64,000 nucleotides of DNA from a virus: positions 1 to 64,000 of the IMG/VR virus record IMGVR_UViG_3300046832_001910; one strand, given 5' to 3'. Every line of letters begins with the position of its first letter. Position 1 is the stretch's first letter. A program made the translations under genes and the position numbers. A model generated the notes under the pieces. The model was not told the DNA's origin, did not search any database, and saw only the letters and a list, made by a program, of their open reading frames with translations. Positions 46,230-49,999 of this stretch are shown in pieces.

Positions 46230-46531
46230 ATATAGACATTGAAAAACTTAAAAAGATCGAAGAGGTCTGCGGACAATTTGAAATTGGTCGAATCATGGGT
46301 GGTGGTGATCATAACTACCTTCGCTTTGGTTATTGGAGACCGACTGATTGGACTGCACTCCAAGAGATCTTAGGTCCTTCTATTATCGTAGAAGAAGACT
46401 CCGATTATGATGATGACTGCGGTTGGAAGTATTCATACACTCTCTATGATCGCTTTGAATGGGAAAAGATTCAAAAAGAAAGACAAGAGAGATTAAATGC
46501 ATGGAGACAACCTTCCGTGAAACAATCATAA
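46226..46531 (+). CDS. Hypothetical protein
   Basis: 101 aa ORF with ATGA overlap. Confidence 0.6.
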   Translation: MNIDIEKLKKIEEVCGQFEIGRIMGGGDHNYLRFGYWRPTDWTALQEILGPSIIVEEDSDYDDDCGWKYSYTLYDRFEWEKIQKERQERLNAWRQPSVKQS

Positions 46532-46555
46532 TACATAGTTATATAAATAACGAAA

Positions 46556-46567
46556 CGTTCTTTAACA
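46556..46567 (+). promoter_or_regulatory. boxA-like antitermination site before the tmRNA
   Basis: CGTTCTTTAACA versus rrn boxA TGCTCTTTAACA. Confidence 0.6.
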
Positions 46568-46571
46568 TTAT

Positions 46572-46952
46572 GGGGGTGACCTGGTTTTGACGGTTAAGCT
46601 GAAAATAGGTTACTGATGCAAGCAGGGTTAGATGGAAACCCTTAAACACCTATCACACAATAAAAGGCGAAGAGAAATCTTCATTCACCTGGGAAGACGC
46701 AATGTCTTTCATTGGTGCTGATTACGCAGTAGCTGCCTAGTCAGTCCCGCACTCATCGTGGGGTATTAAAAAGAATGAGAACCTTGAGTACTTCTCGCTG
46801 ACTCTCTAAATAAGAGTGGGGAACATTGGTCCAATTAACGATGTTGAAGAACTAATTGGTATTTTGTTTGTTTAGAAAAATAAACTAAGCTTGTGAACGA
46901 AGGATTTAGGTTCCTTAGTCGGACATGGGTTCGAATCCCATCACCTCCACCA
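46572..46952 (+). ncRNA. ssrA: tmRNA
   Basis: Acceptor GGGGGTG/CACCTCC-ACCA with G3:U70; T-arm GGGTTCGAATCCC; tag frame 46666-46740 GEEKSSFTWEDAMSFIGADYAVAA*. Confidence 0.93.
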
Positions 46953-46956
46953 AAAA

Positions 46957-47013
46957 AGGATGCTTACAGCAAACTAGGACTAGATTTGTAAACTATACTC
47001 CTCAGCATCCTGT
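46957..47013 (+). ncRNA. Unassigned small structured RNA, copy 1
   Basis: AGGATGC.TACAGCAAACT...AGCATCCTGTA, shared with 47843-47899. Confidence 0.5.
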
Positions 47014-47016
47014 AAT

Positions 47017-47089
47017 GCGGAAGTAGCTCAGTTGGTAGAGCACAACCTTGCCAAGGTTGGGGTCGCGAGTTCGAATCTCGTCTTCCGCT
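47017..47089 (+). tRNA. tRNA-Gly(GCC)
   Basis: Cloverleaf; anticodon loop TTGCCAA. Confidence 0.95.
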
Positions 47090-47115
47090 CAAAAAGAAAT
47101 TTTACTCACATAGTG

Positions 47116-47142
47116 AAACAAACATAGTGTGAGTATATATAA
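47116..47142 (+). promoter_or_regulatory. Phage promoter (AAAC-N16-TATATAA) in front of the leader ORF
   Basis: Same motif precedes about 12 replication/metabolism genes; flanked by inverted repeat TACTCACA/TGTGAGTA. Confidence 0.6.
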
Positions 47143-47164
47143 ACAGTAAATAAAAACAAATTCA

Positions 47165-47260
47165 ATGCAACTGCACGGATGTACATATTGGATACTTAGT
47201 AATGTGGAGAAGAATTTTCCACAGGCGGATTCAATTACACACATTCCAGGCAGGAGCTAA
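47165..47260 (+). CDS. Putative attenuator leader peptide containing all 20 amino acids (MQLHGCTYWILSNVEKNFPQADSITHIPGRS)
   Basis: ATG after an A-rich initiation region; 23 distinct codons in the first 24; 3' end complementary to the terminator 5' arm. Confidence 0.75.
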   Translation: MQLHGCTYWILSNVEKNFPQADSITHIPGRS

Positions 47261-47284
47261 TGAAATAAACTCATCTAATAATTT

Positions 47285-47324
47285 AGGCCTCCTGGAAAAT
47301 AAAAAATTCCAGGAGGCTTTTTTT
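47285..47324 (+). terminator. Intrinsic terminator (attenuator) between the leader ORF and the tRNA array
   Basis: GCCTCCTGGAA (47287-47297) / TTCCAGGAGGC (47307-47317) followed by T7. Confidence 0.9.
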
Positions 47325-47333
47325 ATGGGTCTC

Positions 47334-47364
47334 TTTCAGAAAAAGATTGAGTGGTTTATATTTG
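47334..47364 (+). promoter_or_regulatory. Putative early (host-type) promoter for the tRNA array
   Basis: TTTCA-N18-TATATTTG (TAnnTTTG -7 box). Confidence 0.6.
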
Positions 47365-47386
47365 TTTAGATTAAGAATAACAAATT

Positions 47387-47398
47387 TGTTCTTTGACA
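47387..47398 (+). promoter_or_regulatory. boxA-like antitermination site before the tRNA array
   Basis: TGTTCTTTGACA. Confidence 0.65.
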
Positions 47399-47414
47399 TA
47401 TTGGTACCGATTTA

Positions 47415-47499
47415 GGAAGATTGGCAGAGTGGTCGATCGCGGCAGTCTTGAAAACTGTTGAACTGCAAGGTTCCGTAGGTTCGAATCCTACATCTTCCG
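47415..47499 (+). tRNA. tRNA-Ser(TGA)
   Basis: Cloverleaf with long variable arm; loop CTTGAAA. Confidence 0.93.
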
Positions 47500-47509
47500 C
47501 AAATCAAAT

Positions 47510-47580
47510 TGCCCTCTCGTCTAATGGCAGGACATGTGGTTTTGGTCCACAGTGTGGAGGTTCGAATCCTTCGGGGGCAA
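47510..47580 (+). tRNA. tRNA-Gln(TTG)
   Basis: Cloverleaf; loop TTTTGGT. Confidence 0.93.
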
Positions 47581-47582
47581 CT

Positions 47583-47762
47583 AATGAAACCCACAGAAGT
47601 CCGATTAGCGCGGATGAAAGGAACCTTGGCTCTCAAAGGATCGCAACCTTTTAAAGAGAGTTTGAATGTCCCAAGGTACTCTGTTCAGATTCCTGCTCTG
47701 CTGTGCACGGCAACAGGTTATGGGGAACAAACCATAAGTAAAACTCGGAGATAGGTTTCATT
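47583..47762 (+). ncRNA. Unassigned multi-branched structured RNA (~180 nt)
   Basis: Closing stem AATGAAACC/GGTTTCATT with several internal stems. Confidence 0.55.
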
Positions 47763-47766
47763 TTAA

Positions 47767-47839
47767 CGGGGAGTAGATCAGTTGGTAGATCGGGTGGTTT
47801 GGGACCATCAGGCCGCAGGTTCGAGTCCTGTCTCCCCGA
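47767..47839 (+). tRNA. tRNA-Pro(TGG)
   Basis: Cloverleaf; loop TTTGGGA. Confidence 0.93.
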
Positions 47840-47842
47840 CTA

Positions 47843-47899
47843 AGGATGCATACAGCAAACTTTACTAAACAGCAAATTTGGAAAAAAGAAGCATCCTGT
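47843..47899 (+). ncRNA. Unassigned small structured RNA, copy 2
   Basis: AGGATGCATACAGCAAACT...AGCATCCTGTA. Confidence 0.5.
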
Positions 47900-47904
47900 A
47901 TTTT

Positions 47905-47977
47905 GCCTCTGTAGCTCAGTTGGTAGAGCTACTGATTTGTAATCAGTGGGTCGCAGGTTCGAATCCTGTCGGAGGCT
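47905..47977 (+). tRNA. tRNA-Thr(TGT)
   Basis: Cloverleaf; loop TTTGTAA. Confidence 0.94.
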
Positions 47978-47982
47978 CAAAT

Positions 47983-48054
47983 GGTCTGTTCGTCTAACGG
48001 TTAGGACATCACCCTTTCACGGTGGTGATACGGGTTCGATTCCCGTACAGACTA
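47983..48054 (+). tRNA. tRNA-Glu(TTC)
   Basis: Cloverleaf; loop CTTTCAC. Confidence 0.93.
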
Positions 48055-48060
48055 CAACAT

Positions 48061-48135
48061 TGCGGGGTGGACTGGAGATGGTTCCAGCTCAGTCTCATAA
48101 GCTGAATCACATGGGTTCGATTCCCATTCCCGCAA
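48061..48135 (+). tRNA. tRNA-Met(CAT), fMet-like acceptor but atypical
   Basis: Loop CTCATAA; TGCGGGG acceptor; lacks the GGG/CCC anticodon stem. Confidence 0.82.
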
Positions 48136-48139
48136 CTAA

Positions 48140-48213
48140 GGCTCGTTAGTAGAGATGGTTACAATGTCGCCCTGTCACGGCGAAGGTCACGGGTTCGAGT
48201 CCCGTACGAGCCG
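48140..48213 (+). tRNA. tRNA-Asp(GTC)
   Basis: Cloverleaf; loop CTGTCAC. Confidence 0.93.
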
Positions 48214-48287
48214 CAAAAAATGCCGAGGTTTAATATTGACCTAAAGTAATGTGTACAGTTACATCGTAGGAAGGCTACCTACATCTT

Positions 48288-48364
48288 GGGGGTATAGCTC
48301 AGTTGGCTAGAGCATCTGCCTTGCACGCAGAGGGTCGTGGGTTCGAGTCCCTCTATCTCCACCA
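48288..48364 (+). tRNA. tRNA-Ala(TGC)
   Basis: Cloverleaf with G3:U70; encoded CCA. Confidence 0.94.
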
Positions 48365-48365
48365 A

Positions 48366-48438
48366 GATCTCGTAGCTCAGTTGGTAGAGCAATACACTTT
48401 TAATGTATGGGCCGCGCGTTCGAGCCGCGCCGGGATCA
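48366..48438 (+). tRNA. tRNA-Lys(TTT)
   Basis: Cloverleaf; loop CTTTTAA. Confidence 0.92.
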
Positions 48439-48514
48439 CAAAAAAATCGCTAATGGAAACATTGAAGGTGTACAATGCTAGCAACACCGCAGGTTAAGCG
48501 ATATCCTGCAATTT

Positions 48515-48595
48515 GCCGAAGTGGTGGAATGGTATACACGCTGGTCTTAGGAACCAGTGCTTCACGGCTTAAGGGTTCGAGTCCCTTCTTCGGTA
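48515..48595 (+). tRNA. tRNA-Leu(TAG)
   Basis: Cloverleaf with variable arm; loop CTTAGGA. Confidence 0.93.
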
Positions 48596-48599
48596 CTAT

Positions 48600-48672
48600 G
48601 CATCCTTAGCTCAGTTGGTAGAGCGCTTGCCTTACATGCAAGATGTCGGAGGTTCAAATCCTTCAGGATGTA
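48600..48672 (+). tRNA. tRNA-Val(TAC)
   Basis: Cloverleaf; loop CTTACAT. Confidence 0.93.
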
Positions 48673-48678
48673 CAAAAT

Positions 48679-48761
48679 TGGAAGGTGGGTGAGTGGTTAA
48701 AACCGGCAGACTGTAACTCTGCTCCCTTACGGGTACGGCGGTTCGAATCCGTCCCTTCCAA
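48679..48761 (+). tRNA. tRNA-Tyr(GTA)
   Basis: Cloverleaf with variable arm; loop CTGTAAC. Confidence 0.92.
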
Positions 48762-48766
48762 CATTT

Positions 48767-48840
48767 GGACCTTTAGCTCAGTCGGTTAGAGCATCGGACT
48801 CATAATCCGCAGGTCGTAGGTTCGAGCCCTACAAGGTCCA
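48767..48840 (+). tRNA. tRNA-Ile2(CAT, lysidine type) or elongator Met
   Basis: Loop CTCATAA; GGACCTT/AAGGTCC acceptor resembles known Ile2 tRNAs. Confidence 0.8.
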
Positions 48841-48845
48841 CATTT

Positions 48846-48918
48846 AGTCGATTAGTTCAATTGGATAGAACACTTGACTACGGATCAAGAGATAAGGGTT
48901 CGAGTCCTTTATTGACTA
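48846..48918 (+). tRNA. tRNA-Arg(ACG)
   Basis: Cloverleaf; loop CTACGGA. Confidence 0.92.
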
Positions 48919-48923
48919 CTAAA

Positions 48924-48996
48924 GGTGATGTAGCTCAGTTGGTAGAGCAAAGGACTGAAAATCCTTGTGTCGGCGGTTCGATTCCGTCTATCACCA
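48924..48996 (+). tRNA. tRNA-Phe(GAA)
   Basis: Cloverleaf; loop CTGAAAA. Confidence 0.94.
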
Positions 48997-49007
48997 CAAA
49001 GTAATAT

Positions 49008-49079
49008 TCCTCGGTAGCTCAGAGGCAGAGCACATGACTGTTAATCATGGGGTCGGGATATCGTAATTCCCCCGGGGAG
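49008..49079 (+). tRNA. tRNA-Asn(GTT) with non-canonical T-loop
   Basis: Loop CTGTTAA; T-arm GGGAT-ATCGTAA-TTCCC. Confidence 0.82.
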
Positions 49080-49086
49080 CAAATAT

Positions 49087-49160
49087 TGGAATGTAGCTCA
49101 GTTGGTTAGAGCACTTGCCTGATACGCATGTGGCCGGCGGTTCGAGTCCGCCCATTCCAA
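49087..49160 (+). tRNA. tRNA-Ile(GAT)
   Basis: Cloverleaf; loop CTGATAC. Confidence 0.9.
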
Positions 49161-49165
49161 CATAT

Positions 49166-49239
49166 GGTGGTCGTAGCTCAGTAGGTAGAGCACTGGATTG
49201 TGGTTCCAGTCGTCGCCGGTTCGATCCCGGTCGATCACC
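49166..49239 (+). tRNA. tRNA-His(GTG)
   Basis: Cloverleaf with G-1:C73; loop TTGTGGT. Confidence 0.93.
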
Positions 49240-49244
49240 CAAAA

Positions 49245-49315
49245 GGCACCGTGTCCGAGTGGTTAGGCGAAGGTCTGCAAAACCTTTTACACTGGTTCGA
49301 ATCCAGTCAGTGCCT
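49245..49315 (+). tRNA. tRNA-Cys(GCA)
   Basis: Cloverleaf; loop CTGCAAA; U73. Confidence 0.92.
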
Positions 49316-49324
49316 CTAACATAT

Positions 49325-49397
49325 ACGTCTGTAGCTCAGTTGGTAGAGCACTGGTCTCCAAAACCAGGTGTCGGTGGTTCGAGCCCATCCAGTCGTG
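49325..49397 (+). tRNA. tRNA-Trp(CCA)
   Basis: Cloverleaf; loop CTCCAAA. Confidence 0.93.
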
Positions 49398-49413
49398 CTA
49401 ATACATAAACCAA

Positions 49414-49863
49414 ATGAAAGTGTTCAGAAAGACAAATGGGGTCAAGGTAAATGTGATTGAACACACCCTTGAACAGCTAAGGAATTTTCCTTATGCATCG
49501 ATTCACATCGGTACTGATTCTCAAAATCATGGAGATGTAACGGTTTATAGTACTGTCATTGCATATCGCTTTGGAAACACTGGTGTGCACTATATTGTGC
49601 ATAGGCAAAAATTCCCAAAGATTTCTGATATGTGGACTCGTCTTTGGAAAGAAGCAGAAATGAGTATTGAAACTGCTGAATGGCTAACACAACAAATTAA
49701 TGTTAAAATCTCTATTGATATGGACTATAACGGAGATGAAGGTTTCAAATCAAATAAGATCATATCAGCTGCAAAAGGCTGGGCAAATTCATTAGGATAT
49801 CCGGTTAATGTAAAGCCTAATGAACAAATTGCTACAAGGGCAGCAGACTATTGCTGTCGCTAA
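49414..49863 (+). CDS. RNase H-fold protein, YkuK/DUF458-like
   Basis: IHIGTDSQ, RLWKEAEMS and A.RAAD motifs; embedded in the tRNA array. Confidence 0.8.
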   Translation: MKVFRKTNGVKVNVIEHTLEQLRNFPYASIHIGTDSQNHGDVTVYSTVIAYRFGNTGVHYIVHRQKFPKISDMWTRLWKEAEMSIETAEWLTQQINVKISIDMDYNGDEGFKSNKIISAAKGWANSLGYPVNVKPNEQIATRAADYCCR

Positions 49864-49864
49864 C

Positions 49865-49949
49865 GGAAGGTTACCCAAGTGGTGAAGGGGGCAGTTTGCT
49901 AAACTGTTAGGTCGGCAACGGCGCGAGGGTTCGATCCCCTCACCTTCCG
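49865..49949 (+). tRNA. tRNA-Ser(GCT)
   Basis: Cloverleaf with long variable arm; loop TTGCTAA. Confidence 0.93.
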
Positions 49950-49999
49950 CTCTTTCAGAATGTAACTTTATGTATTATTATTAAATAAATAGTTTAGGT

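Follow-up and report, generated by a model that had tools for sequence, protein, structure and literature searches.

Attenuation by a translated leader peptide has been described for amino-acid and aminoacyl-tRNA synthetase operons, and in enterobacteria its examples include trpL, hisL and pheM of pheST as well as the multivalent leaders of thr (Thr, Ile) and ilvGMEDA (Ile, Leu, Val). The control of tRNA genes is, by textbook knowledge, exerted at the level of the promoter. T-box riboswitches, which are found mainly in Firmicutes, bind uncharged tRNA directly and without translation and control aminoacyl-tRNA synthetase and amino-acid genes, and the boxA of rRNA (rrn) operons acts in Nus-factor antitermination. 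No account of leader peptides or attenuators before phage or Bacteroidota tRNA genes was found in the literature covered, which takes in only a small part of the subscription journals.

An earlier note on a viral DNA had proposed that a short ORF containing all 20 amino acids, together with the terminator behind it, controls an array of tRNA genes in the manner of the trp and his attenuators. The DNA, 64,000 nucleotides long and named here the window, covers positions 1 to 64,000 of a viral record of 117.6 kb (IMGVR_UViG_3300046832_001910), this record being estimated as 38% complete. According to our analysis, it is rather probable that the element is a ribosome-mediated (leader-peptide) transcription attenuator placed before a phage tRNA array.

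The element shares with enterobacterial attenuators a promoter-proximal short ORF, the 1:2, 2:3 and 3:4 pairings among four RNA regions, an intrinsic terminator, codons cognate to the product of the operon and a stop codon so placed that a finishing ribosome would mask region 2. In contrast to them, the genes regulated here would be those of tRNAs and not of biosynthetic enzymes, and the leader samples approximately 19 amino acids once or twice, whereas enterobacterial leaders hold runs of one to three kinds. Moreover, the ORF spans the whole 1:2 hairpin, boxA follows the terminator, and the element is borne by a phage with a very probable Bacteroidota host. A terminator/antiterminator switch that reports tRNA status also brings to mind the T-box riboswitches, but the conserved sensor here would be an ORF. 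The stretch 47091–47414 gave no match at E ≤ 1 to any Rfam family, neither to the T-box (Stem I, specifier or T-box) nor to another cis-regulatory family, and the identity with a T-box riboswitch was rejected. As to rrn boxA, the 17-mer at 47388–47404 is identical to the motif of the Bacteroidota 16S–23S spacer; unlike its rrn counterparts, it lies downstream of a candidate conditional terminator, and no terminator was found upstream of boxA in any of 111 bacterial boxA contexts.

Anatomy of the element and its predicted folds

The window has a GC content of about 32% and contains a cluster of stable RNA genes (46572–49950) consisting of a tmRNA, tRNA-Gly, an interval of 324 nt, 20 tRNAs, a short protein gene and tRNA-Ser. 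The leader ORF and the terminator are situated inside the 324-nt interval, between tRNA-Gly and the tRNA-Ser that opens the array. The features of this part of the window are as follows:

47104–47134, + strand: inverted repeat directly after tRNA-Gly, overlapping the upstream promoter element (predicted fold)
47113–47143, + strand: candidate leader promoter (upstream 9-mer, 14-nt spacer, A/T box)
47165–47260, + strand: 31-codon leader ORF containing all 20 amino acids; candidate stall-sensitive stretch at codons 2–22
47167–47182, + strand: region 1, 5′ strand of the lower stem, predicted to pair with region 2
47241–47260, + strand: region 2, 3′ end of the ORF with the stop codon, pairing with region 1 or region 3
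47283–47299, + strand: region 3, 5′ arm of the terminator and partner in the antiterminator (predicted fold)
47307–47329, + strand: region 4, 3′ arm of the terminator and T-run (predicted fold)
47331–47366, + strand: second promoter-like block, after the terminator (box at 47357–47364; single occurrence in the window)
47388–47404, + strand: rRNA-type boxA of 17 nt, 10 nt before tRNA-Ser
47415–49398, + strand: tRNA array, the candidate regulated unit, with 20 tRNAs for 19 amino acids and none for Gly
49865–49950: extra tRNA-Ser after the array, the 21st tRNA downstream of the leader

The arms of the inverted repeat at 47104–47134 differ in relatives yet remain complementary in the alignment, as judged by eye; this repeat could be an operator or a processing hairpin.

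The terminator consists of a 13-bp stem (47285–47297 with 47307–47319) followed by a T-run, occupies approximately 47285–47326 and has a calculated energy of −21.9 kcal/mol. The pairing of the ORF end (47244–47260) with 47283–47297, which the earlier note had regarded as excluding the terminator, amounts to −15.5 to −17.8 kcal/mol, and the folding of both conformers gave three mutually exclusive pairings, 1:2, 2:3 and 3:4. The sequence of region 2 nearly repeats that of the terminator's 3′ arm. The duplex energies rise in the classical order (−15.4 for 1:2, −17.8 for 2:3 and −24.2 kcal/mol for 3:4). The predicted fold of the nascent RNA contains 1:2 until the 5′ arm of the terminator is complete, then narrowly 2:3, which is the minimum-energy fold before the 3′ arm is made, and finally 1:2 together with 3:4. 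In the predicted folds the terminator is always favoured at equilibrium; the choice between terminator and antiterminator would be kinetic, as in classical attenuators.

The position of the ribosome was imitated by a mask of 30 nt. With the mask at codons 2–22, the predicted nascent fold is 2:3, as the stall model had implied; only part of this pairing remains at codon 24, and none from codon 26 onward. The hairpin of the ORF is strong even when the terminator is left out (z −5.4). One low-depth contig of 246 nt from an RNA library spans 47166–47410 across the terminator; it may be DNA and was given no weight.

Conservation of the leader and its match to the tRNA array

The amino-acid content of the leader, on which the proposal had been built, was confirmed by recount. 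Nineteen types occur within the first 22 of the 31 codons, 23 of the first 24 codons are distinct, and all 20 types are reached by codon 30. Such a composition is rare per ORF: the probability of all 20 types in Met plus 30 codons is 1.4e-4 under the codon usage of the phage and 1.6e-4 to 5e-4 under nucleotide-composition nulls. The ORF is unique in this respect among 274 ATG-ORFs of 20–45 aa in the window and also among 556 ORFs when GTG and TTG starts are included, the next-most-diverse short ORFs being mostly antisense within tRNA and tmRNA genes. The codon usage of the leader is atypical for the phage (GC3 of 0.40 vs 0.224; six codons make up less than 12% of their families), each amino acid is represented by one to three codons, and Gly is present although tRNA-Gly is located upstream of the leader. 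A chance of this order is too weak for a scan of many windows, and therefore independent, comparative evidence was sought.

Using the neighbouring exonuclease gene as a query, 26 related loci were obtained, and 12 of them, counting L001 (a copy of the window stretch), keep the interval between tRNA-Gly and tRNA-Ser. A scan of metagenomes yielded seven loci with one new variant, which brings the clade to seven distinct variants. Within the interval, conservation is highest in the ORF block, and the flanking spacers diverge. In all seven variants the ORF is open, free of indels and retains all 20 types, so that codon diversity rather than sequence is kept, as had been anticipated. Particularly, L013 differs from the window at 15 of 93 bases and in seven residues; its sole Lys and sole Phe were lost by two replacements, and both were restored by other replacements. 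Of the trials with random substitutions of the same number, 0.97% end with the frame open and every one of the 20 types present; for the six differences of the L005 group, the figure is 12.5%. The changes seen in the clade carry a weak coding signal (5 synonymous vs 7 non-synonymous).

The folds of the clade were compared as well. A G–C pair of the terminator is replaced with A–U in L013 through changes in both arms, and the lower 1:2 stem of this locus is altered on both strands, the pairing being kept by eye with a shifted bulge; a fixed-column count scores the same two lower-stem pairs as broken. Over the clade, the ORF hairpin has a double change in 1 of 30 pairs. In six of six variants tested, the 5′ arm of the terminator finds its most stable pairing with nt 79/80–91 of the ORF, with 2:3 energies of −14.0 to −15.1 kcal/mol (p 0.008–0.038). 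The antiterminator strands are invariant within the clade, hence they give no covariation signal for 2:3 there. A covariance model of the element (R1) found no match in 15 more distant loci, and a 14-mer scan gave only chance matches outside the known clade; the searches beyond the clade being unproductive, the within-clade comparison rests on seven variants.

Some observations on the stable RNAs of the cluster may be mentioned here. The tmRNA of the window (46572–46952) encodes a tag of 24 residues and is matched at 100% identity by contigs from three lake metatranscriptomes, and the relatives L010, L013 and L019 have a different tmRNA with a 9-residue tag. Two spacers of 64 nt, one after the tmRNA (46953–47016) and the other after tRNA-Pro (47841–47904), have conserved ends and a variable middle, are closed by a stem of 7–8 bp and fold weakly better than shuffled sequences; they may act in processing or represent small RNAs. 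The segment 47682–47743 resembles the freshwater-1 RNA family with 68.6 bits, just below the family cut-off of 72; it is situated in a gap of 185 nt that separates tRNA-Gln from tRNA-Pro and is absent from the L005 group of relatives. Between the L001 and L005 groups, the tRNA-Ser (anticodon TGA) that opens the array is strongly divergent, and the preceding leader and the following tRNA-Gln are nearly identical in them, which suggests that one tRNA gene was replaced within the array. A collection of phages compared with the window gave tRNA matches only.

The same layout was found outside the clade with the exact 16-mer of boxA, which occurs in at least 113 viral stretches, 97 of them unique contexts with enough upstream sequence. 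Among the matches listed, 17 of the 97 contexts have a terminator at most 110 nt upstream of boxA, and in 14 of these 17 (the window included) a truly short ORF of 22–36 codons precedes the stem, with an in-frame stop 2–21 codons before its ATG and its own stop 20–39 nt before the stem. A fifteenth case, L208, has less than 330 nt of upstream sequence and was left out of the count of contexts. The layout of promoter, ORF, terminator, boxA and tRNA array, with a copy of the 3′ arm of the terminator near the ORF end, is thus present in at least 15 viral loci belonging to about 11 sequence families, the window included. These families are possibly less independent than counted, as one terminator stem is common to L158 and L192, and L257 is similar to family C. 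Shuffled sequences contain such an ORF with a probability of 0.05–0.10 per locus; 7 of 81 real contexts without a terminator have one, and an antisense control gave 4 of 14. Several tRNAs, or one where the sequence ends early, follow in 13 of the 14 comparator loci; in L246 the sequence stops before a tRNA is reached. These ORFs have a Bacteroidota-type promoter box, recognized by eye, about 20 nt ahead of their ATG.

The 5′ arm of the terminator is significantly complementary to the 100 nt upstream in 11 of 14 loci (p ≤ 0.03), the exceptions being L213, L230 and L257. Three terminators placed after long genes served as an internal control (p 0.27, 0.55 and 0.70). Relative to the end of the stop codon, region 2 always falls between −29 and +9 nt, and in 10 of 14 loci 2:3 is the minimum-energy fold when region 4 is left out. 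Regions 2, 3 and 4 covary three ways at one position both in family A (L190/L193) and in family B (L157/L246). A clear 1:2 hairpin (z −2.1 to −4.2) is seen in five loci; in the others it is weak, and in about half of the comparators it does not reach significance.

The leaders follow their own arrays. Over 10 families, only five tRNA types of the arrays are missing from the corresponding leaders vs a mean of 19.7 under permutation, and none of 100,000 permutations was as low; each array was followed for at most 6 kb or until the locus ended, and some are therefore incomplete. The five mismatches come from L149 (two) and L216 (three), and L230, which is not a family representative, has two. The leader of the window contains every one of the 18 amino-acid types other than Met that its array covers, and a readable leader codon exists for 20 of the 21 downstream tRNAs (under standard wobble, with one CAT-anticodon tRNA assumed to read ATA/Ile). 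The exception is tRNA-Arg (ACG), which cannot read the sole Arg codon of the leader, AGG at codon 30, situated inside region 2. Of the suggestion that the leader senses almost any tRNA, the presence of all 20 types stands, but sensing would not extend to Arg through the phage's own tRNA.

Raised amino-acid diversity is not a feature of the class (Fisher p 0.09 for the nine other families), and a complete set as a general property of such leaders had to be given up. The leader of the window contains all 20 types because its array covers 19 amino acids; the complete set, as the sequence comparison supports, would be a consequence of matching a near-complete array.

The ordinary diversity of the other leaders is consistent with a general translation-coupling switch, in which the leader would report whether ribosomes follow the polymerase (initiation rate, ribosome supply) and not which tRNA is short, the complete set having no special role. 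Such a switch would also accommodate the presence of only single codons per amino acid and the weak 1:2 pairing of several loci, in which a ribosome-free leader would already fold the antiterminator. We regard it as unlikely, since the amino-acid sets of the leaders follow their own arrays, the complete set is conserved in the clade vs a chance of about 1%, and the leaders of family C are still without Asp, Glu and Gly after 11–14 replacements.

A further rival, which we consider quite unlikely, is a structured RNA that is not translated, be it a small RNA or a leader binding a protein or ligand, with a functional hairpin and an incidental ORF. The strength of the hairpin in the absence of the terminator, the lower stem of L013 with its by-eye compensation on both strands, the codons rare for the phage and the location inside a cluster of stable RNA genes agree with it. 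On the other hand, the Rfam search at E ≤ 1 was negative, covariation of the hairpin in the clade is thin, an ATG-ORF spans regions 1 to 2 in all 15 loci vs 5–10% expected, and indels are in frame and the complete amino-acid set is conserved. Among the leaders compared, length differences are 0 or 3 nt, replacements are many, and the peptide sequence is poorly conserved.

Candidate promoters and boxA around the terminator

The promoter motif that had been noticed ahead of the ORF received support: the composite motif (47113–47141) occurs twice in the window vs 0.01 expected. Its second copy (46517–46545) precedes the boxA and tmRNA, and the motif is common to the leader and the tmRNA only. The A/T-rich box is found 11–30 nt before the ATG of many phage genes on the + strand and is probably the main promoter class of the phage; the ATG of the leader lies 21 nt after its box. 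The leader promoter motif is kept in all variants of the clade. The exact T4-late consensus is not enriched in the window (12 found, 11.5 expected).

The second promoter-like block (47331–47366) is conserved in all variants while the adjoining spacers diverge, and we take it to be of the Bacteroidota −7 promoter type, that is, host-like. L156 and L193 likewise have a promoter-like block and boxA after the terminator. As this block and boxA are situated between the terminator and the array, the array need not depend on read-through. The idea that the terminator gates the array holds insofar as the terminator precedes it, but the terminator is not the sole gate.

A variant of boxA (46557–46573) abuts the 5′ end of the tmRNA. 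The exact 17-mer is present in at least 120 genome stretches, and 73 of the 80 matches listed are named Bacteroidota. In two rrn contigs, L268 and L271, it is flanked by the spacer tRNAs on one side and the 23S gene on the other, a place that we take to be that of the rRNA spacer boxA; by its identity with the sequence at this place, the phage motif appears to be a boxA of the rRNA type. The taxonomy of the matches indicates that the host of the phage is very probably a member of Bacteroidota, in which translation does not rely on Shine–Dalgarno pairing. A boxA identical to that of the Bacteroidota 16S–23S spacer is widespread in phage tRNA arrays, typically 10–15 nt before a tRNA (loci L146–L257).

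The distance between terminator and boxA is only 6–19 nt in six loci by our own count, which leaves too little room for a promoter before boxA. It is very unlikely that the ORF is an independent gene for a 31-residue peptide, the array being transcribed only from the later promoter and the 20 types having been assembled by chance: its own promoter with gene-like spacing, a strong terminator, the promoter-like block and boxA downstream and a composition chance that is small, yet not negligible in a large scan, would suit such a gene, but region 2 nearly repeats the terminator's 3′ arm here and in 10 other loci, with covariation, six comparator loci have no promoter room, frame and composition are kept in a poorly conserved peptide, and leader and array match. 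No rival explains the leader-to-array match, the conserved frame and the composition together. An attenuator is the best explanation. In our opinion, the comparative evidence is decisive and may be said to carry the case.

Proposed mechanism and its meaning for phage tRNA arrays

The attenuation logic of the trp/his type, proposed at the outset, fits the anatomy in the order of energies, the folds under the ribosome mask, the recurrence, the covariation and the agreement of leader and array. Starting from these, we infer promoter activity, translation of the leader, its coupling to transcription, stalling as the signal and read-through. For translation, the preserved reading frame and the conservation of the composition are indirect signs. 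Transcription would start at the phage-type promoter 47113–47143, and the leader of 31 codons would be translated while being transcribed. A ribosome reaching the stop codon would cover region 2, so that the terminator forms and transcription ends at about 47325. If a ribosome stalled at any of approximately codons 2–22, where a tRNA is scarce, uncharged or cleaved, region 1 would be occupied and region 2 free; the latter would then pair with the 5′ arm of the terminator, and the polymerase would continue over boxA into the array of 20 tRNAs. The promoter-like block after the terminator probably provides an unconditional supply, to which the attenuator would add a supply driven by demand. In other phages, the amino-acid set of the leader follows the content of their own arrays.

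A more far-reaching reading is offered tentatively and with slightly less than even confidence. The leader may be a complete codon sampler of the whole tRNA pool, in which any missing tRNA species, for example upon attack by a host anticodon nuclease or upon host shut-off, would call up the full decoding kit, the promoter giving the basal supply. Such an element might be considered a virus-encoded homeostat of decoding capacity, and the equality of leader content and array content might be a rule in large Bacteroidota phages.

Summarizing, this large lake phage probably raises its tRNA output when the shortage of any one tRNA brings ribosomes to a halt. If the attenuator is true, the content of a leader would predict the extent of its operon, which may serve as an annotation rule. 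The finding bears on the question of why phages carry tRNA arrays, whether for codon usage, because of host shut-off or as an escape from tRNA-cleaving defences, and this question would become testable with simple reporters. Large phages would then regulate their own tRNA supply by ribosome feedback.
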